Shown here: positions 35,259 to 57,059 of the stretch, piece by piece
How positions within the stretch are numbered: the stretch's first letter is position 1
Layout: each line of letters opens with the position of its first letter
Assembly: GCA_021735655.1 (NCBI GenBank)
Contig: JAIPGM010000001.1
Location: forward strand, 161,728-225,727
Length of the DNA stretch: 64,000 nt
Direction of reading: 5' to 3'
DNA from: Candidatus Omnitrophota bacterium
Lineage (GTDB): Bacteria > Omnitrophota > Gorgyraeia > Duberdicusellales > 4484-171
Notes under the pieces: generated by a model
The model's database searches: none
Told to the model about the DNA's origin: nothing
What the model saw: only the letters and a program-made list of their open reading frames with translations
Program-made: the position numbers and the translations under genes

Positions 35259-36566
35259 TTGAAATTACCAATGAAAAGAAAGAGAATCCTGATTGTCGGA
35301 GGCGGGTTAGCCGGCTTAAGTGCTGCCTATTTTTTGGGTAAGCAGGGCCAAGCGGTATCTGTCTTTGAAAGAGAGAAAGAATGTGGAGGATTGTGCCGTT
35401 CAATAAAAAAGAATGGCTTTACCTTTGATTTTGGAGGTCATCTTCTGCACTTCCGAAGAAAGGATATTTTTCTGCTGGTCAAGAGACTTCTTAAGGGCAA
35501 TTTGCTAAAACATAAAAGAAGTGCCTGGGTTGATACTCATCAACGTTTATTGCCTTATCCGTTTCAGGCTAATCTTTTCGGTCTGCCTAAAAATATAGCT
35601 GCAGAATGCCTTCAAAACTTTATTGAGGTTAATACTAATGGACAAAAAACTGCTAAAACCAATAATTTTCGGGATTGGATAGATAGCAATTTTGGTAAAG
35701 GGATTGCCAGGCATTTTATGGTTCCTTATAACCTTAAATTTTGGAAAATGCCCTTAGAAAACCTTTCTTATGAATGGGCAGAGCGATTCGTAGTTCTTCC
35801 TTCGCGTAAAGATGTTGTTGAGGGGGCCATTGGAAGCCGAAGTAATAATTTAGGGTATAATTCCTTTTTTTGGTACCCTAAGCAAGGCGGAATAGAAGAG
35901 TTGATAAAGTCTTTTTCCGGTAGGGTGGATGATATTTTTTTAAATTCCGAAGCAGCAGAAATCGACCTAAAGAATAAAGCAGTAAGGTTTAAGAATGGTT
36001 CCAAAGAGAAATTTGACATTTTAGTTTCTACCATACCTTTACCCGAGCTTGGCAAAATTATTAAAGGATTGCCAAAAGATATTTTATCTGAATTTAGAAG
36101 ATTAAACTGGCTATCTATTTATAATATAAATCTAGGGGTAAAAGGAAATATTAGGCCAGGACAACACTGGATTTACTTTCCGAGAAAAGATAGTTCCTTT
36201 TTTAGAGTCGGATTTTTTAATAACTTTTCATCGCAGCTTGCGCCACGAGGCATGAGCTCTTTATATGCCGAAGCTTCATATCTCGGTGGTTCTGCGATAA
36301 GTAAGTCAAGGCTTGCCACGGCGATAAAAAAAGATTTAGCCAGAGCCGGAATTCTCGGAAAGGATAATTCTACTTGTTGCGAATACACGAATGATATAGA
36401 TTACGCTTATCCGATTTATGATAAGAATTATAGGACAGCCAGGCATAGAATTTTTAAGTTTTTGTCGAAAAACAAGGTTGTTTCGGTCGGCCGTTATGGC
36501 GGTTGGCAATACCTATCTATGGAGGATGTTATTTTGGAGGCCCAAGCTACGGCTAGGAGTATATAA
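35259..36566 (+). CDS. UDP-galactopyranose mutase-like FAD-dependent oxidoreductase. The true start is probably the ATG at about 35271.
   Basis: The N-terminal Rossmann motif ILIVGGGLAGLSAAYFL...VFEREKECGG is present. YNLKFWKMPLENL resembles the UGM block YT.KQWG..P.EL. The C-terminus SVGRYGGWQYLSMEDVILEA resembles UGM VGRLGTYRYLDMD.TI..AL. Confidence 0.6.
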   Translation: MKLPMKRKRILIVGGGLAGLSAAYFLGKQGQAVSVFEREKECGGLCRSIKKNGFTFDFGGHLLHFRRKDIFLLVKRLLKGNLLKHKRSAWVDTHQRLLPYPFQANLFGLPKNIAAECLQNFIEVNTNGQKTAKTNNFRDWIDSNFGKGIARHFMVPYNLKFWKMPLENLSYEWAERFVVLPSRKDVVEGAIGSRSNNLGYNSFFWYPKQGGIEELIKSFSGRVDDIFLNSEAAEIDLKNKAVRFKNGSKEKFDILVSTIPLPELGKIIKGLPKDILSEFRRLNWLSIYNINLGVKGNIRPGQHWIYFPRKDSSFFRVGFFNNFSSQLAPRGMSSLYAEASYLGGSAISKSRLATAIKKDLARAGILGKDNSTCCEYTNDIDYAYPIYDKNYRTARHRIFKFLSKNKVVSVGRYGGWQYLSMEDVILEAQATARSI

Positions 36567-37349
36567 ATGAAGTTTAGAAAAAGAATAAAAAATGTATTTT
36601 TCCATAAATCCATTTTGTGGGAGATGTCGATTAAGCAGCTTAAGGCAAAGTATTCTGGTTCTATGTTGGGTATTTGGTGGGCAGTGGCGACCCCTCTTAT
36701 TCTGGCTGTAAGTATTAATTTTATTTTTACTAATGTATTTAAGGTGGGTATTGAAAATTTTACCTTTTTTGTTTTATCAGGGATAGTCCCTTGGCTATTG
36801 TTCTCTAATGCTATAAACGAAGCCGCCGGGTCTTTTATTGCCAATTTTTCGGTATTAAGGCAGGCCATTTTTCCTCGAGAGTTTGTTCCAATGACTTCGA
36901 TTATCTCTAATTTTTTAATTTTTCTGATCGGTTTATTGATTCTGCTTCCTTTTTTTATTGTTTCTAATCCGAGGGTAATTACGGTTTTGCCGTTTCTGTT
37001 GGTAGTTTTATTTTTTTATTTATTTTTTCTTGTCGGGCTTGCTATGATTTTTTCATCTTTAAATGTTTTCTTTCGTGATGTATCCCATCTTTTAGCTATC
37101 GGGTTAATGGTTTGGTTTTGGGTTACGCCTATTTTTTACTCTTTGGATATGTTACCGGCTTCATTTCGCTGGATCTGCTTAAGTAATCCAGTTACTTACT
37201 ATGTAGTTTCTTATAGATTAATTTTGTTTGAAGCGAAGCCGTTATCCCTTCCAATTTTGTTAACTTTATTTTTTATTTCCTTTACGTCATTCATCGTTGG
37301 TTATGCCTTTTTCCTTAAAAATGAAAATAGTTTATTAAAACGAGTATGA
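36567..37349 (+). CDS. ABC-2 type transporter permease (Wzm/KpsM/TagG-like).
   Basis: Six-helix ABC-2 topology, 260 aa. Its stop overlaps the start of the downstream ATPase (ATGA coupling). Confidence 0.75.
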   Translation: MKFRKRIKNVFFHKSILWEMSIKQLKAKYSGSMLGIWWAVATPLILAVSINFIFTNVFKVGIENFTFFVLSGIVPWLLFSNAINEAAGSFIANFSVLRQAIFPREFVPMTSIISNFLIFLIGLLILLPFFIVSNPRVITVLPFLLVVLFFYLFFLVGLAMIFSSLNVFFRDVSHLLAIGLMVWFWVTPIFYSLDMLPASFRWICLSNPVTYYVVSYRLILFEAKPLSLPILLTLFFISFTSFIVGYAFFLKNENSLLKRV

Positions 37350-40300
37350 GGATAATAGAATTTAATAATGTTTGGGAGAAGTACCGGATTAAATTTGTAA
37401 GGGACAGGAAAGTTTCTTGGGAAGAAATTTGGGCTTTAAGCAATATAGACTTTACAGTTAATAAGGGTGAAGTTATAGGAATAATTGGTGAAAATGGTGC
37501 CGGAAAAACTACTTTATTAAAATTAATCGCTGGCATGTTTGCTCCGGATAGAGGAGATATATCTGTTCGAGGAAAGGTATCGGTATTGATGGAGCTAGGG
37601 GCTGGTTTTAATCCTGAGTTTACCGGGAGGGAAAATGTTATTCTTAATGCCCGTATCTACGGGTTAGATACAGACATAGTTGAACAGCAAATGGAGAAAA
37701 TCGTCGAATTTGCTGATATTGGTAAATTTATCGATGCCCCGGTTAAATATTATTCACAGGGCATGTATACCCGTTTAGCATTTGCTTTGGCTATATTTGT
37801 AGAGCCGGATATTCTTTTAATTGATGATATTCTATCGGTAGGCGATGCTGACGCACAAAAGAAATGTATTGATAAAGTATTCAAGTTAAAGGAATCGGGA
37901 AAGACTATTATTTTAGTAAGTCATGACATGCATATGATAAGTAGGCTGTGCGATCGAGTTATCCTTTTGGATAAAGGTAAACTTATCGACAGAGGTAATC
38001 CCGCTGAGATTATCTATCATTACCTAGAGACTGTTGGGGATAAAAGTGGTATTGCAGTTTTAGAAAAGGATAAATTAAGATTAGTATTTAATAATGGGAG
38101 AATTACTTTTAGCTACGCAGGAGTGCCCCTTACTAAAGAATTTGGTGGTTATGTGGCTTATTTTGTTTCTTCCCTTGGTAGTTGGCTTTCTTCTTTTGAT
38201 TTATTCTGGAAGATAAGCCATTTTTCAGCTAATAAAATTGTTGCTGAGGGAGAATATAAAGGTAGAGGGCCTTCTCAGGTTTGGGTTTTGGAATTTTCTG
38301 AAAGCAGATTATGTTGGCAGGTGAAGATAAAAGACAAAGATGTAAGAGATCCGCATATAGATTTATTGCTTAACCCTCAATATAAAAAATGGTTAAATTT
38401 AGACCAAGGCGGGGGTTTTCCTTCCTTTATTTCTAAATCTACTTGGCAGAATTTGGGTTTAGCTAATTTTCCCCAAGCTATGGTCGGTTTAACCGCAGAC
38501 TTGGAAGTTAAGAGTTGTCCTTCTTTTGTTTTGACCGCAGAGGATAAGGATACTCAGATTAGACTTTTCAATACAGGTTATGACCAGGAAGGACGCATTA
38601 TTCAGTTGGATTTAAAGTTAGCCGGAGACAATCTATTTTTTCTTAAAATATTTCCTGAGAAAAATATATTTGAAGAGTATATTAAAAAAGAGAAAGATAT
38701 ATTTGAAGAGAGCATTAAAAAAGTAAACCAGCAACTAGCTTTAGAGAAAGAAGCGCAACAGGTCAGATTGCGGGATTTATCAACTTTTGCTTGGGGCAAT
38801 TTTAGTCTTTTTGCTGATAAGGAGGAAAAGTCTTTAAAGCTATACTTTAAGAATAAAGAAGTCACCAAAAAAGAAGGATTCCATATATCTTTTTTGATCA
38901 ATAATATCTGGTACGATACTACTTCTGCGGATTGGCAGATAACTAAAGAAAAGGAAGTTTTCATAATTAAACTATTTTGGAAAGTGTTTGATTTTAAACA
39001 AACTTGGAAATTTTCAGTTAAGAATGGGGGGCTTCTTTGGAATTTAAATTCCATCGTAAAGAAAACCTTCAATCCAGAGATTATGAAAATCGGTTTACTA
39101 TTAATAAGTGAGTACAAAACTTTCTTTTGCGGTTATCAGCAGGAAGATTTTCCAGATAAATTCAGCTCTTGGCAGGATATGTCTCTCAAAGACCCGAAAG
39201 CAAGATGTTTTGGTTTAAGAAAACAAACATCGTTACCGGCGATTGCTTTAGATAACAATGAAAGTTTTGATTGTATTGTACAGAACAGCGATGAAGAAAA
39301 TTCCTGTCGGGTACTACAGCTAAGCCTTCCCAGGCAAAGTTTTATTCAAAAAAATACATCTTTTGGTGTTCAACTTAGCCTGCTTGAAGAGGAAAGTCCC
39401 ATTGATCATTACCTTAAACAAGAAAGACAGGACCATTTACTTAGGCAACAAGAAGCAAAAAGATTGCTTAGCGCTAAAAGTACTATATCAAAAGATAATT
39501 TTCGTTTTTTTGTTGATAAGGAAGAAAAATCTTTAAGGATATACTTTAAGGACAAAGAGATTACTAAAGGGGCCGGTCTACATAGTTCATTATGCGTTTT
39601 CGGGAAGTGGTTTCATAGGGAGGAAACTAGGTGGCAGACAAAAAAGATTTCCGATGAAGAAGTAGTTTTAATTTTAAGTTATGACTCACTACCGCTTTTA
39701 CAAATTTTTTCTCTTAGTTTCAAAAGAAAGGGTATTCTAAGAGTTAAAGTCGAAATGGAAATAAGCGAGCAGATTCATTTGTCTGATCATCATCTGAAGC
39801 TTGAGCTTCAAGATGACTATAATAATTGGGATACTGGCTATGAGCAAGGCAATTTTTTTATTGATCGATATGTGGATGAGATCGGTCCGATTAGACTAAA
39901 AGATAATAGAATTTCGAATATACTATTGAGATCAAACAATGAAAGTAAAATTCCAAAAATGCTTTTGAAAATTATTTCCCAAATTGATAGACGAATTATA
40001 AACCTTTATAAGCGAAGAAGTGAAGATGGAGAATGCGTTGGCCTTTGCTCTCCTTTGATTGTATCTAAAAAAGAAGAACTGGTTAAACCTGGAAAGTATA
40101 CTTATTTCGAAGGAGAAATCATATTTGGAAAAGAAGCTAAATTAGAAAGAGAAGCTTCTAGGGTAGATATTGTCGAGCTTAAAAAAGATGATATAAGATT
40201 TGTTTTTGATCGTGGCAGAGTTAAAATTTTCTGGAAGGAAGAAGAGTTAACTTCGGAATTAGGAATTTATACCTCATTGCGTTCAAAAGGAATCTGGCAG

Positions 40301-40813
40301 GATTCTTACCAGGCAGCTTGGGAAATAGAGCATAAAGCTAAGGAAAAAATTGTGGCAACTGGAGGTTGGCCTTACCTTCCCATTTCTCAAACATGGAAAT
40401 TAGAGTTGCTCGGCAAGAATTCAATATCTTGGCAAGTTGACATGGAGATTTACGGTGAAGTTAATTTAGAGATAGAACAGGCTAGTGTAATGATTTCTTC
40501 TAAATACAGGAATTGGGAAATTCCCAGTTTTAACAGCGGTAAATTTCTTGATGTCTATGTTAAGAATCACGATATTCTACCTTTTAGATTTTGGTCTGGG
40601 GATGCAAACAAGATAGCTGCTGTTTCAGAATGTTTTCCCTCGATAATTTTTAAAAGCGAAAGACAAGATAAAGAAATGCAGGCGGTTATAGAAAATACAG
40701 GTATTTTATATAGGGCAAGGTTGTTGCAGTATCAAAGTACAAGTAATAATGCAATTTTGCCAGGTAAATATCCATACTTTAGGGGGATGATAGAAATTGA
40801 GACTAGGAAGTAA
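37346..40813 (+). CDS. ABC transporter ATP-binding protein (Wzt/TagH-like) with a C-terminal extension of about 900 aa made of four tandem copies of a ~120-aa domain.
   Basis: Walker A GENGAGKTTLLKLIAG, the ABC signature region YSQGMYTRLAFALAI and Walker B LLIDDILSVGD are present. The remainder is internally repetitive (see the repeat feature). Confidence 0.8.
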   Translation: MRIIEFNNVWEKYRIKFVRDRKVSWEEIWALSNIDFTVNKGEVIGIIGENGAGKTTLLKLIAGMFAPDRGDISVRGKVSVLMELGAGFNPEFTGRENVILNARIYGLDTDIVEQQMEKIVEFADIGKFIDAPVKYYSQGMYTRLAFALAIFVEPDILLIDDILSVGDADAQKKCIDKVFKLKESGKTIILVSHDMHMISRLCDRVILLDKGKLIDRGNPAEIIYHYLETVGDKSGIAVLEKDKLRLVFNNGRITFSYAGVPLTKEFGGYVAYFVSSLGSWLSSFDLFWKISHFSANKIVAEGEYKGRGPSQVWVLEFSESRLCWQVKIKDKDVRDPHIDLLLNPQYKKWLNLDQGGGFPSFISKSTWQNLGLANFPQAMVGLTADLEVKSCPSFVLTAEDKDTQIRLFNTGYDQEGRIIQLDLKLAGDNLFFLKIFPEKNIFEEYIKKEKDIFEESIKKVNQQLALEKEAQQVRLRDLSTFAWGNFSLFADKEEKSLKLYFKNKEVTKKEGFHISFLINNIWYDTTSADWQITKEKEVFIIKLFWKVFDFKQTWKFSVKNGGLLWNLNSIVKKTFNPEIMKIGLLLISEYKTFFCGYQQEDFPDKFSSWQDMSLKDPKARCFGLRKQTSLPAIALDNNESFDCIVQNSDEENSCRVLQLSLPRQSFIQKNTSFGVQLSLLEEESPIDHYLKQERQDHLLRQQEAKRLLSAKSTISKDNFRFFVDKEEKSLRIYFKDKEITKGAGLHSSLCVFGKWFHREETRWQTKKISDEEVVLILSYDSLPLLQIFSLSFKRKGILRVKVEMEISEQIHLSDHHLKLELQDDYNNWDTGYEQGNFFIDRYVDEIGPIRLKDNRISNILLRSNNESKIPKMLLKIISQIDRRIINLYKRRSEDGECVGLCSPLIVSKKEELVKPGKYTYFEGEIIFGKEAKLEREASRVDIVELKKDDIRFVFDRGRVKIFWKEEELTSELGIYTSLRSKGIWQDSYQAAWEIEHKAKEKIVATGGWPYLPISQTWKLELLGKNSISWQVDMEIYGEVNLEIEQASVMISSKYRNWEIPSFNSGKFLDVYVKNHDILPFRFWSGDANKIAAVSECFPSIIFKSERQDKEMQAVIENTGILYRARLLQYQSTSNNAILPGKYPYFRGMIEIETRK
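38036..40813 (+). repeat. Four tandem protein-level repeats of a ~120-aa domain in the Wzt-like C-terminus. The same domain also occurs at about 40935..41280 (N-terminus of the next gene) and about 50265..50620 (C-terminus of a B12-rSAM).
   Basis: Aligned blocks: LRLVFNNGRITFSYAGVPLTKEFGGYVA, KSLKLYFKNKEVTKKEGFHISFLINNIWYDTTSADWQITKEKE, KSLRIYFKDKEITKGAGLHSSLCVFGKWFHREETRWQTKKISDEE, IRFVFDRGRVKIFWKEEELTSELGIYTSLRSKGIWQDSYQAAWEIEHKAKEK, LRIDYLDKGIGMSWNNSPITENVHFNVGLNTLGLWTDSSKAHWQIMDQGED and LKIDFSQKGSGRLYYDNKALTKDVGLNASFHANGRWFDSSSAKCRVA. Each is followed by an LP(L/I)SQ.W.(I/L)...W.(V/I).(M/L)E(I/F) block. Confidence 0.75.
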
Positions 40814-43163
40814 TTATCAAAAGTTTCGAAATCATCTAAGCGCGGGGGGTTTGATTTATGCTGTCTATAGAGGTATAAAATATTTTATTTATTTGCCGCA
40901 GAGGAGAAATTGTAAGCGTAAACAAAAACAAATAATGCTTATTAACGGCAAGCTAAGAATAGATTATTTGGATAAAGGGATTGGCATGTCTTGGAATAAT
41001 TCCCCAATTACCGAAAATGTACACTTTAATGTCGGGCTTAATACTTTAGGATTATGGACAGATTCTTCAAAGGCTCATTGGCAAATTATGGATCAAGGAG
41101 AAGATTATCTCAAGGTCAAGGTAATTTTCCAGGAGTTACCTTTGAGCCAGAATTGGCTAATAAAGTTAGAGGGCGACCACCAAATATACTGGAAGATAGA
41201 TTTAGAAATAGAAGAGCATCTTCATATTGATGAATTCCGGATGGTTTGCGGAGTTAACCGTAAGTATAAAACTTGGATTAATAGCTTTCAGGAGAAAGTT
41301 TTTCCCCGGCTTAATCAATATTGGCAAGATTTATGTCTAGATAATGTTTTTACTTCTTTTGTGGGAGTAAGGTTTCCTACTGGAAACACTCTCTTGCCTT
41401 CATTGGTATTTGAATCTTGCGATGATAGCAGAGTTTTTTCCCCCCTTGTTCAAAATACCCCTTTAGATATTAATACCCATATTATAGGATTTAGAAAGAT
41501 TAATCACGAAGATGAAAGGGATTATCCGCCGGGTTGTTATCAGCTTTTTGCTGGCAGAATAAAATTATACGAAGACAATTATCTGTTAGATAAGAAAATA
41601 GAAGATGTGCGTCAAGATTACTTTAAGTCTACAATGAAACGAGTAAGTGCTATTTCCGAAGCCAAAGAATTAAAAGTTATGCTAGTAAATCTACCTTGGC
41701 AGAATAACGGGGTAGGGGGAGTAAGGGCTGGCTCTCGTTGGCCGCACATGAAAGATTTAAGCGAAGGAAATTACTTACCATTTCCTTTTTTTCTTGCTTA
41801 CGCCACCTCTCTTTTAGAAAAAAACGGTATCAAGGCTGACTTAGTTGATGCTATCGCAGAATGTTTATCCGAAGATAAGTTTATCGAGCGGCTTTTAGGA
41901 GCTAATTGTAATGTTTTAGTTGTTGAGACCTCTGTGCCTTCATTTTACCATGATCTGCAGCTATTAAGGAAGTTATCAAATTTTGGTTTTACAATAATTT
42001 TATGCGGTCCAAATTCTGAAATTTATAAATTTGAATTTTTAAAAGAAAATAGATTCATTAATTATGTTTTATTCGGAGAATATGAATTTACGCTTTTGGA
42101 ATTGACGAAGATTATTTCTAAGGGCAAAAAAGATCTTACTTTTGTAAAAGGCCTTATTTGGAGAGATGAAAAAGGTAATATTATTAAGAATCATCCTCGG
42201 GAGCCTTTTGATATAAATTGTTTACCTTGGCCTCACAGGGATAAGCTTCCGATGGAAAAATATTGGGATTTACCTGGTGATATTCCTCATCCTTCGGTTC
42301 AAATAGTTGCCTCGCGGGGTTGTCCTTTTGGTTGCAGTTTTTGCCTTTGGCCTCAGATTCTTTTTGGCGGAAAGACCTATAGAGTGAGGGACGTAACTGA
42401 TTGCATTGATGAAATGGAGTACTTAGTAAGAGAAAAAGGCTTTAAATCAGTCTATTTCGATGATGATACTTTTAATGTCGGAAAAGCTAGGATGCTTGAT
42501 TTTTGCAATGAGATTATAAAGAGAAAGCTAGATAATGTCCCCTGGGCAATTATGGCTAAAGCCGACCTTATGGATGAGGAGATTTTAGATAAGATGAAGG
42601 AGGCTGGGTTACATGCGGTAAAGTATGGAGTAGAGAGTGCTTCGCAAGAGTTAGTGGATAGGTGTGGAAAATGTCTAGACCTTAAAAAAGCAGAGCAGAT
42701 GATTAAATATAGCCAACATTTAGGCATAAAGGTTCATTTGACTTTTTCCTTTGGTCTTCCTGGAGAAACTAAGGAGACAATTAAAAAAACAGTTGATTAT
42801 GCTTTAAAATTAGATCCACAGTCAGTTCAATTTTCAATTATTACACCTTTTCCAGGCACAACTCTTTTTGAAGAGCTAGATAAAAAGGAAAAAATTCTTA
42901 CTAAGAATTGGTCTTTGTATGATGGTCATTATAGTTGTGTTTTCCAGCCGGATAACCTTTCTTTGGGAGATTTAGAAGAATCAAAACAACATGCTTACAG
43001 GTTGTGGCTAGATTATCAAAGGAAAAAAAGAGGATTGCTGGGTGATCTAAAAAGGTTCTATAATTATGCACAAAAAGATGGTTTAGGCAATGCAGTTAAG
43101 AAGACTAAAGATTACTTGAATTATTCTATTTTTCATAGAAAGAAGTTTATCGGTAAGATATGA
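40797..43163 (+). CDS. B12-binding radical SAM protein (class B rSAM) with an N-terminal copy of the shared ~120-aa domain.
   Basis: VQIVASRGCPFGCSFCLW is the CxxxCxxC motif in the class-B context, preceded by a Rossmann-like B12-binding region. The start overlaps the upstream gene by 17 nt. Confidence 0.75.
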   Translation: MRLGSNYQKFRNHLSAGGLIYAVYRGIKYFIYLPQRRNCKRKQKQIMLINGKLRIDYLDKGIGMSWNNSPITENVHFNVGLNTLGLWTDSSKAHWQIMDQGEDYLKVKVIFQELPLSQNWLIKLEGDHQIYWKIDLEIEEHLHIDEFRMVCGVNRKYKTWINSFQEKVFPRLNQYWQDLCLDNVFTSFVGVRFPTGNTLLPSLVFESCDDSRVFSPLVQNTPLDINTHIIGFRKINHEDERDYPPGCYQLFAGRIKLYEDNYLLDKKIEDVRQDYFKSTMKRVSAISEAKELKVMLVNLPWQNNGVGGVRAGSRWPHMKDLSEGNYLPFPFFLAYATSLLEKNGIKADLVDAIAECLSEDKFIERLLGANCNVLVVETSVPSFYHDLQLLRKLSNFGFTIILCGPNSEIYKFEFLKENRFINYVLFGEYEFTLLELTKIISKGKKDLTFVKGLIWRDEKGNIIKNHPREPFDINCLPWPHRDKLPMEKYWDLPGDIPHPSVQIVASRGCPFGCSFCLWPQILFGGKTYRVRDVTDCIDEMEYLVREKGFKSVYFDDDTFNVGKARMLDFCNEIIKRKLDNVPWAIMAKADLMDEEILDKMKEAGLHAVKYGVESASQELVDRCGKCLDLKKAEQMIKYSQHLGIKVHLTFSFGLPGETKETIKKTVDYALKLDPQSVQFSIITPFPGTTLFEELDKKEKILTKNWSLYDGHYSCVFQPDNLSLGDLEESKQHAYRLWLDYQRKKRGLLGDLKRFYNYAQKDGLGNAVKKTKDYLNYSIFHRKKFIGKI

Positions 43164-46100
43164 AGAATTATCTAGTCACCTGGGATAAAATATGTAAGGG
43201 TATAACTAAGCAAAAGAAGATATTTTGTGGCCCACACACTGTCCAAATAGATTTAACCGACAAATGCAATAGTAGCTGCGTTGCTTGTTGGATTCACTCA
43301 CCTTTAGTTGAGGAAAAAAAATCATTTCCAGAAGGCAAAAAACAACTTTCTTTCGAATTAGTTAAAAGTTTGATTAATGATTTGTCTGATTTAGGAACTC
43401 AGGAGGTAATTTTATCCGGATCAGGGGAGCCATTTTTATATCCAGAAATAAAAGAGGTTATAAAAAATATAAAGTCAAAAAATATGTATCTAAATATAAT
43501 TACCAATGCTTCTCTTATCGATGAGGAAATGGCAGAGCTGTTAGTAAAATGCAAAGTCGATTTAATTACTGCCAGCATATGGGCCGGTGATGCTGAAACT
43601 TACAGCTTAACTCATCCAGGAAAAAGCGAAGCTGATTTCGAAAAAATAAAGAGTAACTTAAAGAAATTGGCTTTTTATAAGAAGCGGTATGGTTCATTGG
43701 AGCCGCATTTAAAATTATATAATGTAATTTGCAGTAAAAATTATAGAAATATTGAGGAAATGGTTGATTTTGCTAAATCAATGGATGCCGATTCTTTAGA
43801 GTTTCAGGTTGTTGATATAATTTCTGGGAAAACAGATCATTTGGCCCTGAAAGATGCCTATAAGAGCGAGATAGTAAATCAATTGGACAATATAAGAAAG
43901 CGAAAAGATTTAATATCTTTTAATACGCCTAAAGAAATGCCGATAGATAGTTTTATTGATGAGGAATTTTTTGATTTTGGAAAGATTTGGAAAAATTACA
44001 AAAACGGCTTTTGCGTTTCTCAGTGTAGCAGTTCTTTGGTTTGCAAAAAAGATCACGAGATAAAAGATAAGAGAATTATTGTTTCAGAGTCGACATCAAC
44101 CAGAGGGACTCGTCCGGTTGCATTTTGGTATAAATTTGAAAATAATATATGTAAAACTTGCGAGGAAAATATTGAGTGCGTTGACGATGAAAATGCAGTG
44201 AGCATAAAATTGTTGAATATGTTGGGTATTGGTTCATTTTTGAGGAGATTATTGCGCTCTGATTTAGAGAGAGGGATATATGAAAAGCAAATAAATAGCA
44301 TCCCATGTTATATAGGGTGGTATTATTCTCGTATTTTAGCTAATGGTGATGTTATCCCTTGTTGCAAGGCAGGTAAGTTATCTTTAGGTAATATTAAGAA
44401 AAGAACTTTTTCTAAAATTTGGCATTCCTATCGATATAAAAAGTTTCGGCTTAACGCTAAGAATTTAACTAAGCATCATAAGTATTTTTCTAACATCAAT
44501 TGCATCAAGAGTTGCGATAATTGGGGAGTAAATTTAGAAATCGACGGGAGATTGAAGGAATTTGAAAATAAAGAGAAAAAAAAGGAGCCTTACCTTTTAA
44601 CTATCAAGAATAGCATTATAAAGGGTAGGGTTGAGGATACGCTTGCAAAAATTACTCGTAATATTAAACCGAATAATTTAAAAAAGAGATATTCAGAAAT
44701 TTTAGGTGTATTTGATGGTGAACATGGTTATAAAGGTCCATTCCACGTTCAGATAGACTTGACTAATGATTGCAATAACACTTGCATTGCTTGTTGGTGC
44801 AATTCACCTCTTTTGAAAGAGAAACGATTATCGGCTGATAAAAAAAATCAATATTTACCTTTAGGAATGGTAAAGGAATTATTGGATGAGATTACTAATA
44901 TGGGTGCTACTGAGGTCTATTATTCAGGAAGTGGTGAACCATTTATGCATCCAGCGATTATGGAGATTCTCGATTATTCAAAAAAGAAAGGTTTAATCTG
45001 TCACGTAAATACTAATTTTACTCTTCTTAATCAAGAAAAGATAGATTGCTTAATCGATATGGAGGTTGACCATCTTACGGTGAGTGTTTGGGCGGCTACG
45101 GCCGAAACTTATGCAAAAACTCATCCTAATAAAACCGAGGCTGACTTTCAACGGATAAAAGAGAATTTACTATATCTGAACTTACGAAAGAAAAGTAAGC
45201 CCTGTATAAAAATTTATAACGTTATTTTTAACATGAATTACCTTGAAGTTGAGAAGATGCTTGATTTTGCCGTTGAGACTAAATCTGAATCTTTAGAATT
45301 TACCCTTGTAGATACTATGCCTGGGGCTACTGATATGCTTGCTTTAAATCAAGGACAGTTGGATGAGCTTAATGATTTATGCAGGAAAATAAAATTAAAA
45401 TTAGATAAAAATTACATAATTAGGAGTAAAAAGGTATTGCTTTTTCAGTTTGAGCAGTTTTTGAGAAGGATTTCTGTTTCTCAAGATGTCCAGGAGGCAA
45501 AATACGATAGAGGTGTTATTGATAGTATGCCTTGTTATATTGGTTGGCTTTTTGCACGAATAATTCCTAACGGGGAAGTTCATTCTTGTCTTAAGGCGCA
45601 TAGAATTCCGACCGGTTCTTTGTATAAAGATAGATTTTTCGAAATTTGGAATAGTGCTAAACAGGCACATTTTCGTAAAAAGACTTTAGTTTGCAGAAAA
45701 GATGATCCTTTCTTTAGGTTGATTGGCAACGATCCCAATACAAAGGAGGCCGGTTGTTACAAGAGTTGCGATGATATCGGGAGGAACACTTGGATGCATA
45801 ACAAGATGAATATGTTGACGCCACTGGGAAGGCTGACACTTAAGTACGTAGCTAAAGCCATGAAGCCTCTAAGGAGGCTTAGGTCCAAAAACGATAATTT
45901 TAAGAATTACCACAGTGACCCTTTAATTGCCGGGGTCATCCATGGCCGGAAGGCTTTTTTGGGACCCGAACAAGTAGTAATTGATCCGACCAATAAGTGT
46001 AATTTGCAATGCATTTCTTGTTGGATGTATTCGCCATTATTGAAAAAAAATAAACCAGCTTTGGATTTATTGAAACAAGAATTATCTAAAGAGGTACTTA

Positions 46101-47014
46101 TTAAATTAATCGATGATTTAGCTGATTTAGGAACAAAGCGTATTAGGTTCACTGGTGGCGGAGAGCCTTTTATGCATAAAGATTTGATGACAGTAATAGA
46201 GCATGCCCGAAAAAAGAATATTTTAGTTGCGGTAACTACGAACTTTGGTTTGGTCTCTAGACAGGATATTCTTAGATTGTGTGATTTGGGATTGGAGGAG
46301 TTATGCATAAGCATTTGGGGTTCTTCATCGAGAGTCTACAATTTGGTTCATCCTGGTACCGGTGAGGATTATTTTAAGAAATTAAAAGAAAATCTTTCTT
46401 ATTTGAAAGGGCTAAATAAGTATAAACCGCGGACTACCTTTGCTAATGTAATCATGAATAATAATTTCACTGATTTTGAAGCAATGTATGATTTTGCTTT
46501 AGATCATGGAGCTGATGCAGCCTATTTTACCTTGGTTGATATTATTTCCGGTCAAACCGATAAGTTCTTGTTGAATAAAGATGAACGAAGCGAATTGCTA
46601 AAGAGAGCTCTTATGGTTCAGCAACGAAATAAAGATAACAAGCTGCAGCTTGAATTTTTTGAGAATTTTCTAAAAAGAGTATCTAGTTTCCAAGGAGACT
46701 TTGAAAAAGGAGAATATGATAAATCGAGCATTGATCAATTGCCTTGTTATGCCGGCTGGATTTTTTCAAGAGTTTTGGCAGACGGAAGCGTTGCGCCCTG
46801 CTGCCGGGGGGTTAAAAAAATAATCGGCAACATCAAGACTAAATCTTTTAAAGATATTTGGTTTTCGCCCGAATACAATGAGTTTAGAGTTAAAGCAAAG
46901 TATTTATCGAAAAGCAACGCTTACTTTAAGGATATAGGCTGTATAAAAGAATGTGATAATTTGATGCATAATCAGGAGTTTCATAAAAGAATAAATCTAA
47001 AAGAAGGAGGTTGA
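43160..47014 (+). CDS. Triple-module radical SAM protein: three tandem rSAM plus SPASM/twitch-like modules in one 1,284-aa polypeptide.
   Basis: Three CxxxCxxC motifs: CNSSCVACW at about 43264, CNNTCIACW at about 44770 and CNLQCISCW at about 45995. Each is followed by a GGEP-type SAM motif (SGSGEPFLYP, SGSGEPFMHP, TGGGEPFMHK) and a C-terminal Cys-rich auxiliary-cluster region (CYIGWYYSRILANGDVIPCCKAG, CYIGWLFARIIPNGEVHSCLKAH, CYAGWIFSRVLADGSVAPCCRGV). Confidence 0.8.
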   Translation: MKNYLVTWDKICKGITKQKKIFCGPHTVQIDLTDKCNSSCVACWIHSPLVEEKKSFPEGKKQLSFELVKSLINDLSDLGTQEVILSGSGEPFLYPEIKEVIKNIKSKNMYLNIITNASLIDEEMAELLVKCKVDLITASIWAGDAETYSLTHPGKSEADFEKIKSNLKKLAFYKKRYGSLEPHLKLYNVICSKNYRNIEEMVDFAKSMDADSLEFQVVDIISGKTDHLALKDAYKSEIVNQLDNIRKRKDLISFNTPKEMPIDSFIDEEFFDFGKIWKNYKNGFCVSQCSSSLVCKKDHEIKDKRIIVSESTSTRGTRPVAFWYKFENNICKTCEENIECVDDENAVSIKLLNMLGIGSFLRRLLRSDLERGIYEKQINSIPCYIGWYYSRILANGDVIPCCKAGKLSLGNIKKRTFSKIWHSYRYKKFRLNAKNLTKHHKYFSNINCIKSCDNWGVNLEIDGRLKEFENKEKKKEPYLLTIKNSIIKGRVEDTLAKITRNIKPNNLKKRYSEILGVFDGEHGYKGPFHVQIDLTNDCNNTCIACWCNSPLLKEKRLSADKKNQYLPLGMVKELLDEITNMGATEVYYSGSGEPFMHPAIMEILDYSKKKGLICHVNTNFTLLNQEKIDCLIDMEVDHLTVSVWAATAETYAKTHPNKTEADFQRIKENLLYLNLRKKSKPCIKIYNVIFNMNYLEVEKMLDFAVETKSESLEFTLVDTMPGATDMLALNQGQLDELNDLCRKIKLKLDKNYIIRSKKVLLFQFEQFLRRISVSQDVQEAKYDRGVIDSMPCYIGWLFARIIPNGEVHSCLKAHRIPTGSLYKDRFFEIWNSAKQAHFRKKTLVCRKDDPFFRLIGNDPNTKEAGCYKSCDDIGRNTWMHNKMNMLTPLGRLTLKYVAKAMKPLRRLRSKNDNFKNYHSDPLIAGVIHGRKAFLGPEQVVIDPTNKCNLQCISCWMYSPLLKKNKPALDLLKQELSKEVLIKLIDDLADLGTKRIRFTGGGEPFMHKDLMTVIEHARKKNILVAVTTNFGLVSRQDILRLCDLGLEELCISIWGSSSRVYNLVHPGTGEDYFKKLKENLSYLKGLNKYKPRTTFANVIMNNNFTDFEAMYDFALDHGADAAYFTLVDIISGQTDKFLLNKDERSELLKRALMVQQRNKDNKLQLEFFENFLKRVSSFQGDFEKGEYDKSSIDQLPCYAGWIFSRVLADGSVAPCCRGVKKIIGNIKTKSFKDIWFSPEYNEFRVKAKYLSKSNAYFKDIGCIKECDNLMHNQEFHKRINLKEGG

Positions 47015-48740: not shown

Positions 48741-50909
48741 ATGCTCATGAAAAATGAAAATTGCGAATTAATTTTTGTAATGACTCCGCCTTGGCAGACA
48801 AAGATGCCGCCTTTAGGCTTGGCCTATTTAGCCAGTTTTTTGAAGTCAAACAATATTAACGTAGATGTCATAGATTTGAATGTGGATCTTTTTAATAATG
48901 CTCAAGAATGCCATAAATATTTTTGGGATATAGAAACAATAAGTAATTTTGGTTCGCTTCGGATTGCCCAAGATTTTATTAAGGCATTCAATAAAGAACT
49001 TGAAAATTTTGTTGATCGAATCTGTAGTCATCCTGCAAAGTTGGTCGGTTTTTCTACTACGGTAGCTAGTATAAATATCGCCACCTACCTTACTCATCGG
49101 ATAAAATCAAAAGATCCTTCGAAAATAATTATTTTAGGCGGGCCAGGATGTTTTTTGGATACTTGCAATATAGATCCTGAAAGGGTGGTAGATATTTTTG
49201 TCATTGGCGACGGAGAGCTGCCTTTATTGGATATAGTTAAAAGATTTAAAGATAAACAGTCTTTGTCTGATTTGTTGGAGGTTCCTGGGACAATAATTTG
49301 TCTAGATAAGAAATATCATGACTTTTCACCGGCGAATCCTGTTAAGCAGATAAACGATATTCCTTTTCCTACTTTTTCGGAGTTCGAGCTGGATGAATAC
49401 CATAAAGAACATGTTTACAAACCAATTCCAATTATTACCAGCAGAGGCTGTATAAATAAATGCAGTTTTTGCGTAGACCATAAGCTCAGTAATCCTTTTA
49501 GATTTCGAAATCCGCACAAAATATTTGAAGAGATAAAATACCATGTAGAAAATAATTGTAAAAAAGAGTTTGAGTATAACGATCTACTATGTAATGGAAA
49601 TTTAAAGCAATTGGAGCAGCTTTGCGACCTGATCATTGAAAGCGGCCTGTCTATAAAATGGACAAGCTATGCGGCCATAAGGAAAGGTATGAGTTTAGAG
49701 TTATTTCAGAAGATGCAGAAGGCGGGATGCAGATTTTTATGTTATGGTATGGAGTCAGCTTCAGATTTAGTTTTAGATAAGATGAATAAAAGATATAATT
49801 CTCATACGGCAGAGGATGTTATTAGAAAAACCCATTCCTCAGGTATCGAGACAGGAATCAACATTATAGTTGGCCACCCCGGTGAGTCGAATAAAGAATT
49901 TAACCAAACTTATAGATTTATCAAAAGAAACAAAGACTACATTGATCAAATCACAAACCTGTCTACTTGTTTTTTAATACCGACTTCGGATTTAGCTGAG
50001 AATATGAGCAATTTCGGTATTTATTTTTATTCTCCTTTGAAAAGGATGCCAAAATTCTTATTTCGAAATAAAGAGCTTGAGCCTAATTATGAAAATTTCT
50101 GCGCCTATCCTCATAATACTCCTGCGATTAGAGCAAAACGAGCCAGAAAAATTATAACTCTTGCTTCAAAGATAGCTATACCGATTACTATTTTGAACTA
50201 TCAAAAGCAGCACGATATGGGTATGGGGGATTTTCTAGTCCAAACTCAAGAAGCGGAAAAAGTTTTTCGTTGTAAGAAGTTAAAGATAGACTTTAGTCAA
50301 AAAGGAAGCGGTAGGTTATATTATGACAATAAGGCCTTAACTAAAGACGTAGGCCTAAATGCTTCCTTTCATGCCAATGGGCGATGGTTTGATTCTTCTT
50401 CGGCAAAGTGTCGGGTAGCCAGATCCAACAGAGGCTTGGAAATAAGAATGAGTTGGCCGGAGATTTCTTTGTTTCAATGCTGGACGATAAAAACAGAAGG
50501 TGATTCTTCTGTCGAATGGCGGGTAAAAACAGAGTTTAAAAGGTCTTTGGAGCTATCTCAATATAAGATCGGCATTATCTTGTCACAGGAATACGATAGT
50601 TGCCAAGTTAATGGTGAAGAACACCGATTCTCCGATAATTTTACCGAGAACTGGGAGGAAGCATTGTTTTTGAAGCTTGATTCGATAAGCATCGGCTCTA
50701 AGGGATTTTTACCGATGATGACCCTGAAGGAAGAATCCAAGGGTGGTGTGTTCGTGCAGGTCCATAATACCCCGCTTCACTTGCATACTCGAATGATTAA
50801 TTTTTGCCGTTTTGGCGAGAACCTTAAAGATGACCACAGCACTGAATCTTTATTGATCAAAAAAGGTGATGTTTGGAAAAATAAGCTAAAAATAAAATTA
50901 AAGGTTTAA
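48741..50909 (+). CDS. B12-binding radical SAM protein with a C-terminal copy of the shared ~120-aa domain.
   Basis: ITSRGCINKCSFCVDH is the CxxxCxxC motif, after an N-terminal Rossmann B12-binding region. The C-terminal 150 aa align with the Wzt-extension repeats. Confidence 0.75.
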   Translation: MLMKNENCELIFVMTPPWQTKMPPLGLAYLASFLKSNNINVDVIDLNVDLFNNAQECHKYFWDIETISNFGSLRIAQDFIKAFNKELENFVDRICSHPAKLVGFSTTVASINIATYLTHRIKSKDPSKIIILGGPGCFLDTCNIDPERVVDIFVIGDGELPLLDIVKRFKDKQSLSDLLEVPGTIICLDKKYHDFSPANPVKQINDIPFPTFSEFELDEYHKEHVYKPIPIITSRGCINKCSFCVDHKLSNPFRFRNPHKIFEEIKYHVENNCKKEFEYNDLLCNGNLKQLEQLCDLIIESGLSIKWTSYAAIRKGMSLELFQKMQKAGCRFLCYGMESASDLVLDKMNKRYNSHTAEDVIRKTHSSGIETGINIIVGHPGESNKEFNQTYRFIKRNKDYIDQITNLSTCFLIPTSDLAENMSNFGIYFYSPLKRMPKFLFRNKELEPNYENFCAYPHNTPAIRAKRARKIITLASKIAIPITILNYQKQHDMGMGDFLVQTQEAEKVFRCKKLKIDFSQKGSGRLYYDNKALTKDVGLNASFHANGRWFDSSSAKCRVARSNRGLEIRMSWPEISLFQCWTIKTEGDSSVEWRVKTEFKRSLELSQYKIGIILSQEYDSCQVNGEEHRFSDNFTENWEEALFLKLDSISIGSKGFLPMMTLKEESKGGVFVQVHNTPLHLHTRMINFCRFGENLKDDHSTESLLIKKGDVWKNKLKIKLKV

Positions 50910-50919
50910 AAATTTACAT

Positions 50920-53900
50920 ATGAATCTAACAGATAAAATTTTATTAGTGGGTCTTGCTCCTTGGGGAGTAGATACGCCACCCCTAGCCTTAGCTTGTTTA
51001 AGTACCTCTTTGAGGAATGCAAATATTAGCACTGAAGTATTTGATATGAATATTGAGCTTTACAATGCCGTTAATGAGCAAAGTAAATATTTGTGGAGTA
51101 TGAATTATTCTCATTGGTGGCGAGAGCCAGAAAGATATTCTGATATTAGAAAGGAATTAGATGTTTACATAGAACCTTTAATAAAGAAAATTTTAAGTTT
51201 TAAGCATAAGATAGTTGGCTTTTCACTTTCTACTAATTGCTCTGACCTTTTGTTGGAGGAGATAGTAAAAAGAATAAAAACTAGCGATCCCGATAAGGTA
51301 ATAATTCTAGGTGGTGTTTCAATTTCAATAAATGAGCAGAGAAATGATTTAATTAGGAAGTTAAGGACGCAGATAGATTACTGTGTGATTGGAGAAGGAG
51401 AAGAGGTACTTGTCGAATTGGTAAAGAAAATAGCTAGCAATAAGCTAGAAGATATAGGTCGATTGCCAGGCATAATTAAGAAGGGTGAGTTTGAAGGAGT
51501 TAAACAGAGGGCAGAGATCAAAGATTTTAATTCGCTGCCATTTCCTACATTTGAAGAATTCAATTTAAAAAAATATAAAGCACCCGTGAGCTTACCTATG
51601 GAATTTTCTCGTGGCTGCGTAGGTAGTTGTCCTTTCTGCGATTTTAAAAGCGTTTCTTCTGCCTTTAAGTCAAAAGCACCTTATTATATTATAAGCCAGA
51701 TAAAATTCTATAAAGAAAAATACAATATTATTCATATGAGCCTATCTGACCCAGCAGTAAATGGAGATATTAGGGTTCTTGAGCAAATATGTGATTTATT
51801 AATCGAAGCTAACCTTTCTGTAAATATAAATTCTCTGGCAATTCCCCGCAAGGAAATGACCTTAGAACTATTAGAGAGAATGAAGAAAGCAGGTTTTTAT
51901 CGTTTGGAGTATGGTCTAGAGAGCGGTTCGAATAAGATTCTCAAAGCAATGAGGAAAATATTTACTGTCGAAATTGCCGAGAAAGTTATCCGAGATACTT
52001 ATCAAGCAGGGATAAAAACATATCTCTATTTAATTGTGGGTTATCCACAGGAGACAGAGGATGATCTCAATCAGACCAAAGATTTTTTGAATAGAAACCG
52101 TCAGTATATTTCCATGATAAAGTCTATCAACCCTCTTTATGTAATGGCCGGTTCAGAGATATTTTGCAATCCCGATAAATATCAAGTCACATTACCGGCT
52201 AAAGATAGTGACAAGAGATGGTTTATTGGTGATAAGAATACATATTCTTTGCGAAAAGCCCGGATATTTGAACTTAAAAAAGTAGTTGCTAGTTTAAATA
52301 TTCCCTTTACCGAAGAGGCGGAATCTTTAGAGTTTACTGGAAACTCTTTAAATAAACAACAAGGAATCGTTGTAGGTGGAGGCAATCCATACGATAAAGA
52401 TGAGTCAACTACAGAAAATAAAATTATGTCTAGAGGATATGCAGAACAAAAAACAGATAAATATAGAGATAGTTTTTTATTAATTAATTTGCCCCCTTGG
52501 GGTCAAGAAAATCCTCATATCGGAGTAGGCTATGTGTGTAGCTATCTTCGTCATAAAGGCTTTAAGCCATCGGTCTTAGACTTGAATAAGAAATTTTATT
52601 TGAGTCAGCCAAATTTTCAAATGCTCTGGCATGTAGAAAATAAAAACTTTTGGTCAAATCAAGATTCTTTTCCTTTGATTTTAAAATTATTTAAGAAGGA
52701 AATAGATAAGGCAATAAATGATATTTTGTCTTCAGGTTGCAGCCTATTAGGTTTCTCGGTAGTTGACCCTAAAGAAAAAATAACTATAGAGTTCATTAGG
52801 AGAATAAAACGTAGGGATAAAAGTAAAAAGATAATTTTAGGTGGTCCGGCAACTTCTACTTATGAGCAGAGAAAGATATTTTTGGATAATGTTGAGGAAG
52901 AGATAGATACTTTTGTGATCGGCGAAGGCGAGCAAACTTTGTTTAAGGTAGTAGACCGAATTTTAAAGAAAAAAGAGCTTAAAGGTATCGAGGGTTGTTG
53001 CAGCCGGGATAATGGTAAGTGGGTTTGTCGAGAAAGCGGTGAGATTGTTTCTTTAGATAAGATTCCTTTCCCGACCTATGAGGAATTTGATTTGAGTCTA
53101 TACGGTAAATCTTTCCTTGTTGAATGGTCAAGAGGCTGTAGGAGTAAATGCGCTTTTTGCAAAAATTATCGGCTTTTTTCTTCTTATCGGTCAAAGTCAG
53201 CTGAATCGGTTATGAAGGAATTGAGATATCATAAGCAAAAGTATAATGTAGATGAATTCACTGTAGTCGATAATATTTTGAATGGTGATCTAAATACCTT
53301 GAATGATATTTGCGACAGGATAATAAAGGAAAATCTTCAAATTAGATGGACTGGGCAAATTGCCCCCCGCAAAGATATGAATTTTGAATATTTCCAAAAA
53401 ATGAAGCAGGCCGGATGTTTTAAACTTCAAATTGGCCTTGAGTCTGGTTCGAACAAGGTGTTAAAGTTAATGCATAAGAGCTTTACGGCAGAGATTTCTG
53501 AAAAAAATATAATTTTTGCTAAGAAAGCAGGCATTGAGACAGAAATTTTTACAATGATTGGTTTTCCCGGGGAGGCTGAGAAAGATTTTCAAGAAACTTA
53601 CGATTTTATAAAAAGAAATGCAAAATATCTGGATACCATAAAATCGATAAACACCTTACATCTAATAGCCGGAACTGAAATCTATGAGCAGAGAGAGCGT
53701 TTTAAAATAAAGCCTTTACCTCAAGAAAACTGGCATTATTTATGGGAAACTTATGAGGGAAATACATACAAGGTACGGGAAGAAAGAGCTAAGCGTATTC
53801 TAGGGTTAGCTTGCGATCTTAAGATTAAAGTTATGGAGACTAATATTATAGAGGGAAAAGAGCAAAAAGTTTTGCTTGAAAATCTCGGCTTATTGGAAAA

Positions 53901-54078
53901 ATCCCTGAATTCTTTGCAAGAGTTACCAGAAAAAGAAGAATTTAAGCTAAAAAGAAGAAATATTAATAAATGGTTAATCCTGATTTTTGTTTCTTTTTAC
54001 ACATTTTTTTATATTATTTATTTTTGGGTATTTATGATTTTTAGAAATAAAGTTCTCTTGGGGGGAAGAAAAAAGTGA
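50920..54078 (+). CDS. Tandem double B12-binding radical SAM protein with a C-terminal membrane anchor.
   Basis: Two complete B12-rSAM units with EFSRGCVGSCPFCDF and EWSRGCRSKCAFCKNY. The C-terminal hydrophobic helix is WLILIFVSFYTFFYIIYFWVFMIF. Confidence 0.75.
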   Translation: MNLTDKILLVGLAPWGVDTPPLALACLSTSLRNANISTEVFDMNIELYNAVNEQSKYLWSMNYSHWWREPERYSDIRKELDVYIEPLIKKILSFKHKIVGFSLSTNCSDLLLEEIVKRIKTSDPDKVIILGGVSISINEQRNDLIRKLRTQIDYCVIGEGEEVLVELVKKIASNKLEDIGRLPGIIKKGEFEGVKQRAEIKDFNSLPFPTFEEFNLKKYKAPVSLPMEFSRGCVGSCPFCDFKSVSSAFKSKAPYYIISQIKFYKEKYNIIHMSLSDPAVNGDIRVLEQICDLLIEANLSVNINSLAIPRKEMTLELLERMKKAGFYRLEYGLESGSNKILKAMRKIFTVEIAEKVIRDTYQAGIKTYLYLIVGYPQETEDDLNQTKDFLNRNRQYISMIKSINPLYVMAGSEIFCNPDKYQVTLPAKDSDKRWFIGDKNTYSLRKARIFELKKVVASLNIPFTEEAESLEFTGNSLNKQQGIVVGGGNPYDKDESTTENKIMSRGYAEQKTDKYRDSFLLINLPPWGQENPHIGVGYVCSYLRHKGFKPSVLDLNKKFYLSQPNFQMLWHVENKNFWSNQDSFPLILKLFKKEIDKAINDILSSGCSLLGFSVVDPKEKITIEFIRRIKRRDKSKKIILGGPATSTYEQRKIFLDNVEEEIDTFVIGEGEQTLFKVVDRILKKKELKGIEGCCSRDNGKWVCRESGEIVSLDKIPFPTYEEFDLSLYGKSFLVEWSRGCRSKCAFCKNYRLFSSYRSKSAESVMKELRYHKQKYNVDEFTVVDNILNGDLNTLNDICDRIIKENLQIRWTGQIAPRKDMNFEYFQKMKQAGCFKLQIGLESGSNKVLKLMHKSFTAEISEKNIIFAKKAGIETEIFTMIGFPGEAEKDFQETYDFIKRNAKYLDTIKSINTLHLIAGTEIYEQRERFKIKPLPQENWHYLWETYEGNTYKVREERAKRILGLACDLKIKVMETNIIEGKEQKVLLENLGLLEKSLNSLQELPEKEEFKLKRRNINKWLILIFVSFYTFFYIIYFWVFMIFRNKVLLGGRKK

Positions 54079-57058: not shown

Positions 57059-57059
57059 T

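Follow-up and report, generated by a model that had tools for sequence, protein, structure and literature searches.

A domain with a predicted beta-supersandwich fold shared by a Wzt-like exporter ATPase and radical SAM enzymes of an Omnitrophota operon

Export of O-antigen-type polysaccharides by Wzm/Wzt transporters is understood through a single paradigm, in which one jelly-roll carbohydrate-binding domain (CBD) reads the cap at the chain end. Here we analyze a 64,000-nucleotide stretch of contig JAIPGM010000001.1 from a Candidatus Omnitrophota bacterium (the whole stretch is called the window below), in which a Wzt-like exporter ATPase carries four tandem copies of a different domain and two B12-type radical S-adenosylmethionine (rSAM) enzymes of the same operon carry one copy each. 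The canonical Wzt CBD is a jelly-roll beta-sandwich that dimerizes by exchange of its C-terminal strands, and such domains act in trans and gate export by recognizing the chain-end modification (PMC9445017). As references for CBD-dependent Wzm/Wzt systems, we took those of E. coli O9a, Raoultella terrigena/K. pneumoniae O12 and Aquifex aeolicus (PDB 7K2T, 8DKU; PMC9445017). The exporter in the window resembles these in the family of its nucleotide-binding domain (NBD), in its partner, a permease of the ATP-binding cassette (ABC) type ABC-2, in the soluble, beta-rich domain directly following a hinge helix, and in an operon that holds glycosyltransferases together with modifying enzymes; standalone copies of the domain, found in related genomes, echo by analogy the canonical CBDs that act in trans (PMC9445017). 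The system differs in that its module of about 215 amino acids (aa), predicted to be an 18-strand supersandwich and not a jelly roll, has no match to PF14524, that it is mostly present as multiple ordered tandem paralogues where canonical Wzt has one CBD, and that it is also found on rSAM modifying enzymes and on C-type glycosyltransferases (GT-C). Furthermore, most members have Asp in the place of the catalytic Glu, and modification falls to radical SAM proteins instead of the conventional methyltransferase, kinase or Kdo-transferase terminators.

Wall-teichoic-acid exporters of the TagGH/TarGH type, which give the second-best NBD matches (6JBH, 7DD0, 9CFL), are similar in exporting a polyprenyl-linked polymer, but the TarH/TagH chains in the PDB (264-280 aa) are without a comparable tandem C-terminal array. 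Some rSAM enzymes acting on ribosomally synthesized and post-translationally modified peptides (RiPPs) carry a RiPP recognition element (RRE), a winged helix-turn-helix of about 90 aa that binds the leader peptide. The PqqD-like RRE is comparable as a substrate-recruitment domain on rSAM enzymes that is sometimes free-standing, whereas our module is a predicted all-beta supersandwich of 215 aa, has no precursor gene beside it, and accompanies an exporter of the glycan/teichoic-acid type, not of the peptide type. The supersandwich domains of carbohydrate-active enzymes (3NRE aldose 1-epimerase, GH38 2WYH, GH174 8JD7, GH2 domain 5, GH97, PL26, and OpgG/D) show 4-16% identity and no profile match to the module, which, unlike these enzymes, has no conserved catalytic residues and is a repeated appendage on ABC ATPase, rSAM, and GT-C proteins. 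Literature searches combining Omnitrophota with radical SAM, Wzt with radical SAM, and Wzt with mutarotase/supersandwich found no description of the domain or the architecture.

Six copies of one domain on three proteins

The initial annotation had placed four tandem copies of a domain of about 120 aa on the Wzt-like ATPase (38036-40813), one at the N-terminus of the B12-rSAM enzyme encoded at 40797, and one at the C-terminus of that at 48741. All six copies were recovered, with 121-232 bits, by a profile hidden Markov model (HMM) built exclusively on 56 copies from other organisms ("foreign-only" below). BLASTP between the excised copies gave 40-74 bits for most pairs, copy B scoring 74 bits against A and 57 against W2, and the homology of the repeats is thus secure in both types of comparison. 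While the placement of the copies holds, their length had been underestimated: the real unit is about 215 aa, the 120 aa representing its better conserved N-terminal half, and the coordinates given for the enzyme copies, 40935-41280 and 50265-50620, cover only the first halves of copies A and B. With the Wzt boundaries taken from HMM envelopes and the full-length model, the features are as follows:

37346..38032, + strand: Wzt/TagH-type NBD, aa 1-229, with the hinge helix 219-229 at its end (PDB, NCBIfam, motifs, model secondary structure)
38042..38653, + strand: copy W1, aa 233-436, "first-position" type (foreign-only HMM 121 bits; all-beta in the model)
38660..38752, + strand: charged alpha-helical linker of 31 residues, aa 439-469 (model helix 439-469)
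38762..39385, + strand: copy W2, aa 473-680, "second-position" type (foreign-only HMM 187 bits; all-beta in the model)
39395..39478, + strand: alpha-helical linker of 28 residues, aa 684-711 (model helix 684-711)
39482..40126, + strand: copy W3, aa 713-927, "penultimate" type (foreign-only HMM 159 bits; all-beta in the model)
40154..40810, + strand: copy W4, aa 937-1155, "last-position" type, the copy used for the structure model
40797..40913, + strand: basic/hydrophobic N-terminal segment of the first B12-rSAM enzyme, aa 1-39, kept in homologue P0001
40914..41597, + strand: copy A, aa 40-267, N-terminus of the HpnJ/BchE-like B12-rSAM enzyme (foreign-only HMM 182 bits)
41682..43163, + strand: catalytic part of the first, class-B-like rSAM enzyme, aa ~296-788 (Pfam Radical_SAM 7.9e-21)
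48741..50246, + strand: catalytic part of the second, B12-binding rSAM enzyme, aa 1-502 (Pfam B12-binding 7.8e-11, Radical_SAM 9.5e-18)
50247..50894, + strand: copy B, aa 503-718, C-terminus of the second B12-rSAM enzyme (foreign-only HMM 143 bits)

In a six-frame translation of the 64-kb window, the foreign-only profile matched nothing beyond these six copies, and a search for further copies in the 9751-aa giant open reading frame (ORF) and the fused rSAM proteins found none. The only DNA-level similarity among the repeats is a stretch of 95 nt with 75% identity between the starts of W2 and W3, and the Wzt array is therefore ancient, with neither a recent duplication of DNA nor an error of assembly as its origin.

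We predicted the full-length structure of Wzt (pLDDT 85, pTM 0.46) and observed four all-beta domains with one strand pattern, W1-W2 and W2-W3 being joined by helices and W3-W4 by a short loop. Copy W1, whose nearest relatives are the first copies in other Wzt proteins, starts directly after the hinge helix, in the same place as the canonical CBD (PMC9445017). The linker between W1 and W2 contains a 33-nt tandem duplication (38657-38722; perfect register, 88% identity; TRF and repeat search), which encodes EKNIFEEYIKK / EKDIFEESIKK and has recently added 11 residues to the spacer helix.

The best PDB sequence matches of the NBD are to A. aeolicus Wzt (8DKU, 7K2T, 6AMX; E ~1e-63), followed by TarH (1e-55) and TagH, and the TagH and Wzt models of NCBIfam match it below their equivalog cut-offs (TagH 205 bits vs. 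a cut-off of 538). Its motifs include Walker A GENGAGKTT (aa 48-56), the signature YSQGM (aa 136-140), a variant of the form YSxGM, and the H-loop SHD (aa 192-194). The residue after the Walker B Asp is normally the catalytic Glu. In the window, Walker B reads ILLID followed by D161 (37826-37828), i.e., LLIDD as compared with FIIDE in A. aeolicus Wzt, and among 86 family NBDs the position is occupied by Asp in 71 and by Glu in 15. Judged from these residues, a homodimer with D161 would have two "degenerate-type" ATP sites.

Both enzymes bearing a copy match Pfam Radical_SAM, the 48741 enzyme alone also giving a Pfam B12-binding match. Though without a separate B12-binding match, the 40797 enzyme matches the class B families HpnJ (8.5e-70) and BchE (1.3e-45; aa 296-737) of NCBIfam, both below the family cut-offs. 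Its N-terminal segment, containing …SAGGLIYAVYRGIKYFIYLPQRR… and preceding copy A, may serve as an amphipathic membrane-proximal anchor; a crude hydropathy scan of aa 1-39 called no transmembrane (TM) helix.

No Pfam-A or NCBIfam model matches the domain in the window proteins. The tail of Wzt (aa 230-1155) had no Pfam match at E<=0.01, the domain remained without a Pfam or NCBIfam match, PF14524, Aldose_epim, and PqqD included, when a diverse set of 62 family members was scanned at E<=1, and a profile search of PDB sequences returned noise only (E 0.3-0.5). Modeling of W4 with AlphaFold2 and a 62-sequence alignment gave, with very high confidence, an all-beta structure of 18 strands (pLDDT 95.3, pTM 0.91). 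The structural matches of the model were a GH174 fucanase (score 17.8), aldose 1-epimerases (17.5), and a GH38 mannosidase (17.5), together with PL26, GH2 domain 5, GH97, glycan phosphorylases, OpgG/D, and the non-sugar proteins YidC P1, PnsB2, and a PBCV-1 capsid protein; sequence identities were 4-16%, and Foldseek gave the same set. The canonical Wzt CBD was in neither of the two structural match lists. The model thus predicts a galactose-mutarotase-like beta-supersandwich, a carbohydrate-enzyme fold that we take to be SCOP b.30.5 and CATH 2.70.98.10, and marks the module as a new sequence family with a known fold of this kind. Regarding the earlier proposals, the tail is not a fourfold repeat of the canonical Wzt glycan-binding module, as PF14524 does not match and the predicted fold is unlike the jelly-roll CBD (PMC9445017), and the module is not RRE-like, being all-beta and 215 aa long with no PqqD match and no space for a precursor gene in the operon. 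Similarly, the description as novel is correct in that Pfam-A and NCBIfam hold no match, but the domain belongs to a large natural family and is not a one-off.

Across 422 copies, the residues conserved at >=60% are, in W4 numbering, T29, G33, W44, S47, W52, Q75, W77, Y114, W117, G125, F127, P158, N177, R185, and F205, and hydrophobic positions 10 and 110 are conserved likewise. As judged from the sequence alignment, none of the positions is His, Glu, or Asp, which suggests a binding module rather than a mutarotase-type enzyme.

Architectures and conserved gene neighborhood

With the six-copy profile, a word-indexed search for homologues returned a single protein. We searched 1.84 billion representatives exhaustively with a profile and found 630 clusters at E<=1e-3, 294 of which reached E<=1e-30, the genomes being mostly from Omnitrophota. 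The majority of the best 150 of the 630 clusters have a Wzt NBD followed by tandem copies, and the intact Wzt proteins among these 150 carry two (21 cases), three (39), four (14), five (10), or six copies (1). The overall range in Wzt is 1-6 copies, and one protein has up to eight matched stretches. For 94% of the copies, the nearest relative is in another protein and not in the same one, first copies pairing with first and last with last. When typed against the window copies, the arrays gave the recurrent strings W1-W2-W3-W4, W1-W3-W4, and W1-W2-W2-W3-W4. As the types recur in fixed order, the array is an old, ordered set of paralogues.

The module is also found outside Wzt. One to four copies stand N- or C-terminally to rSAM-SPASM or B12-rSAM enzymes, and free-standing copies form proteins of about 300 aa, some of them adjoining the enzyme gene. 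In the 1856-aa protein P0016, one chain holds a Wzt NBD together with five copies and an entire rSAM-SPASM enzyme. As read from their domain content, P0016 and a second such chain, P0117, are Rosetta-stone fusions that tie the exporter directly to radical SAM chemistry; in P0117 the Wzt NBD is followed by two copies and the rSAM-SPASM part. Membrane GT-C glycosyltransferases (PMT_2, ArnT/PMT-like) have one to three C-terminal copies in P0027, P0128, P0130, P0133, and L020:4047-6317 (- strand), the last being divergently adjacent to a Wzm/Wzt operon. A hydropathy scan, too crude to place the copies on a side of the membrane, counted 8-12 TM segments in these fusions. If these fusions have a periplasmic C-terminus, like other GT-C enzymes, the module would act on both sides of the membrane.

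To survey related loci, we used ten W4-type copies and flanks of 10 kb, which biases the sample to genomes with a W4-type copy and falls short of whole operons. The survey gave 38 species-level genomes with W4-type patterns, 24 labeled as Omnitrophota and eight as "Planctomycetia/-ales" bins. About 30 genomes repeat the gene order flavoprotein, Wzm, Wzt (n copies), copy with the HpnJ-like B12-rSAM enzyme, rSAM-SPASM (one to three units, fused or separate), a second B12-rSAM enzyme, and GT4. The permease is retained in the related loci, and copy A is either fused to its enzyme or stands alone immediately 5' of it in about 30 related loci. The sub-lineage of L027, L031, and L033 has two copies before rSAM-SPASM and the B12-rSAM copy at the C-terminus. 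The outgroups L036-L038 (Aminicenantes, candidate division B38, and an unclassified metagenome-assembled genome) encode a 472-aa Wzt with exactly one copy, matched in Pfam by ABC_tran only, and have no copy on the neighboring rSAM enzymes, their clusters holding B12-rSAM, SPASM, and GT4 genes. This single-copy arrangement is possibly the ancestral layout.

Candidate roles of the module

We consider the module a non-catalytic ligand-recognition unit that most likely binds the lipid-linked glycan of the operon, and give this reading a probability of about one half. One autonomous module is common to the exporter ATPase and the rSAM enzymes of the same operon, and its autonomy is seen in its varied placement: at either terminus within one enzyme family, as a separate protein next to the enzyme, or in a single chain with both Wzt and rSAM. 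Given the sharing and its conservation, this autonomy, the predicted carbohydrate-enzyme fold, and the context of glycan assembly and export, a common glycan ligand is the most economical reading. The glycan-related partners are the PMT_2 GT-C enzymes, the GT4 enzymes of the operon, the UDP-galactopyranose-mutase-like flavoprotein, and a Bac_transf domain in the giant protein encoded upstream. The single-copy 472-aa Wzt has the canonical layout of an NBD and one C-terminal domain and supports glycan recognition by analogy. A common substrate tag had been proposed initially; the sharing of the module between exporter and enzymes, kept in about 30 independent genomes, agrees with this, but since the copies are ordered and anciently diverged paralogue types, they more likely read several different things than a single tag four times over. 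This ordered divergence suggests that the copies read different features or stages.

In the mechanism that we propose, the module array of Wzt takes the position of the canonical C-terminal CBD in the form of four ordered, diverged paralogues, and, with long helices between W1 and W2 and between W2 and W3, a dimer of Wzt would display eight modules beneath the membrane. The copies on the two B12-rSAM enzymes would hold these enzymes on the same polymer; modification would then act on a substrate already assembled and tethered to the membrane, whose export would begin when it is engaged by the Wzt array, a gating resembling that by the canonical CBD. A more elaborate version for a major surface glycan, in which several rSAM enzymes of the B12-dependent and SPASM types are recruited by their own modules and perform unusual C-C or C-H chemistry directly on the lipid-linked polysaccharide, each Wzt copy reads a different mark or stage, and only the fully processed polymer is exported, is speculative and on balance doubtful. 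If true, such multi-mark licensing would couple the editing of a glycan at the polymer level by radical SAM enzymes to an ABC transporter with a combinatorial array of readers.

Certain observations speak against glycan recognition and a CBD-like role in export. The rSAM enzymes of the operon are all below the NCBIfam family cut-offs, and the conserved residues are defined at the level of the sequence alignment. The Asp that most members have at the position of the catalytic Glu may imply a transport cycle differing from that of the characterized Wzt, and the pTM of 0.46 leaves the relative arrangement of the four Wzt copies undefined in the model.

The sharing could alternatively arise from protein docking, the enzyme copies pairing with particular Wzt copies by homotypic beta-sandwich contacts and the Wzt tail forming a rail that tethers the rSAM enzymes into a metabolon without binding the substrate. 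Canonical Wzt CBDs do dimerize via strand exchange (PMC9445017), and the same fold is known in the non-sugar roles of YidC P1, PnsB2, and a viral capsid protein; position-specific, ordered paralogue types would fit a set of dedicated docking sites, the helices spacing the copies resemble a scaffold, and the standalone copies adjoin their enzyme. On the other hand, L036-L038 combine a single-copy Wzt with enzymes that have no copy, which argues that the module functions without a partner copy, and the copies fused to GT-C, if oriented as in ArnT, PglB, and PMT, would lie across the membrane from Wzt. The copy number in Wzt does not obviously follow that of the copy-bearing enzymes either (4 vs. 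2 here, 3-5 vs. 1 in most loci), and we regard docking as a serious but rather unlikely alternative. Catalysis by the copies themselves, as mutarotases, epimerases, lyases, or hydrolases that make the Wzt tail a processing line, is very improbable even though aldose 1-epimerases and glycoside hydrolase (GH) and polysaccharide lyase (PL) domains are among the top structural matches. In most of the GH and PL matches, the supersandwich is an accessory domain and not the catalytic one, which counts against catalysis; so do the missing His, Glu, and Asp conservation across the 422 copies, the length of about 215 aa as compared with 290-340 aa for the mutarotases in the match list, and the identity of 4-16% with no member matching such a Pfam family.

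The ligand could also be something other than a glycan: a polyprenyl-(pyro)phosphate carrier or its head group, a lipid, or, in a RiPP-like manner, a peptide. The carrier, which the initial annotation named as an option, would account for one module on chemically different enzymes and on the exporter, the rSAM-SPASM and B12-rSAM enzymes give sub-threshold matches to RiPP maturases and lipid-modifying rSAM enzymes, and an Opp peptide importer is encoded upstream. However, a single invariant carrier would make four anciently diverged, ordered paralogues unnecessary, and the Wzm/Wzt-type NBDs, the GT4 enzymes, and the GT-C partners point to glycans, so that we find a non-glycan ligand improbable. 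Its RiPP variant was ruled out, as there is no RRE-like fold and no precursor gene, which the intergenic gaps of the operon exclude, and as the Opp genes are missing in all 38 related loci.

If the module is indeed a glycan reader, the locus represents a second and apparently widespread solution to polysaccharide export, with a different fold and an ordered array shared with the modifying enzymes. A profile of the family, unmatched by Pfam-A and NCBIfam, could annotate hundreds of blank C-terminal regions, and recombinant copies of the module offer a handle for fishing out the ligand. Omnitrophota are ultra-small, host-dependent bacteria. The operon points to radical chemistry on one of their polysaccharides or glycolipids, which may bear on host attachment and which, to our knowledge, is essentially undescribed.

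The operon and its surroundings

The genes form one tightly packed block on the plus strand (35259-57863), preceded in the window by an importer and a giant gene:

56-29311, + strand: giant multi-enzyme ORF, 9751 aa
29352-35115, between the giant gene and the operon: complete Opp-type oligopeptide importer (substrate-binding protein, two permeases, two ATPases)
35259-36566, + strand: FAD oxidoreductase, a PRK07208 / UDP-galactopyranose-mutase-like flavoprotein
36567-37349, + strand: Wzm-like ABC-2 permease, partner of the ATPase (Pfam ABC2_membrane 4.9e-12), overlapping the Wzt start
37346-40813, + strand: Wzt/TagH-type ATPase, 1155 aa
40797-43163, + strand: HpnJ/BchE-like radical SAM enzyme, 788 aa
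43160-47014, + strand: triple rSAM-SPASM fusion, 1284 aa
between the 43160-47014 and 48741-50909 genes, + strand: methyltransferase, then small rSAM-SPASM
48741-50909, + strand: B12-binding rSAM enzyme, 722 aa
50920-54078, + strand: double B12-rSAM fusion, 1052 aa
after 50920-54078 and before the second ABC-2 pair, + strand: two GT4 glycosyltransferases
56381-57863, + strand: second, short ABC-2 pair at the operon end

The intergenic gaps between 35115 and 57863 are <=144 nt, and a precursor peptide gene therefore has no space in the operon. The Opp importer is probably unrelated to the system, as none of the 38 related loci contains its genes. In the second ABC-2 pair, the ATPase (225 aa) has the canonical Walker B LLLDEP and no C-terminal domain, and the permease is 267 aa long. 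The 9751-aa ORF contains GT1/GT4, Bac_transf phosphoglycosyl transferase, GH77, Glu/Leu dehydrogenase, pyridoxal-phosphate (PLP) decarboxylase, and GH100-like domains, and matches the multi-enzyme giant proteins described for Omnitrophota in a 2026 preprint, in which the exporter-module system is unmentioned (bioRxiv 10.64898/2026.06.07.730766).

The conserved Omnitrophota operon places up to eight radical SAM catalytic domains between a glycan exporter and glycosyltransferases. Fusion and fission of rSAM genes appear rampant across the related genomes: the units fused in the window (three SPASM in 1284 aa and two B12-rSAM in 1052 aa) are separate, adjacent genes in L005, L009, L019, and L035, and another fusion combination, B12-rSAM with SPASM, is found in L008, L010, and L034.

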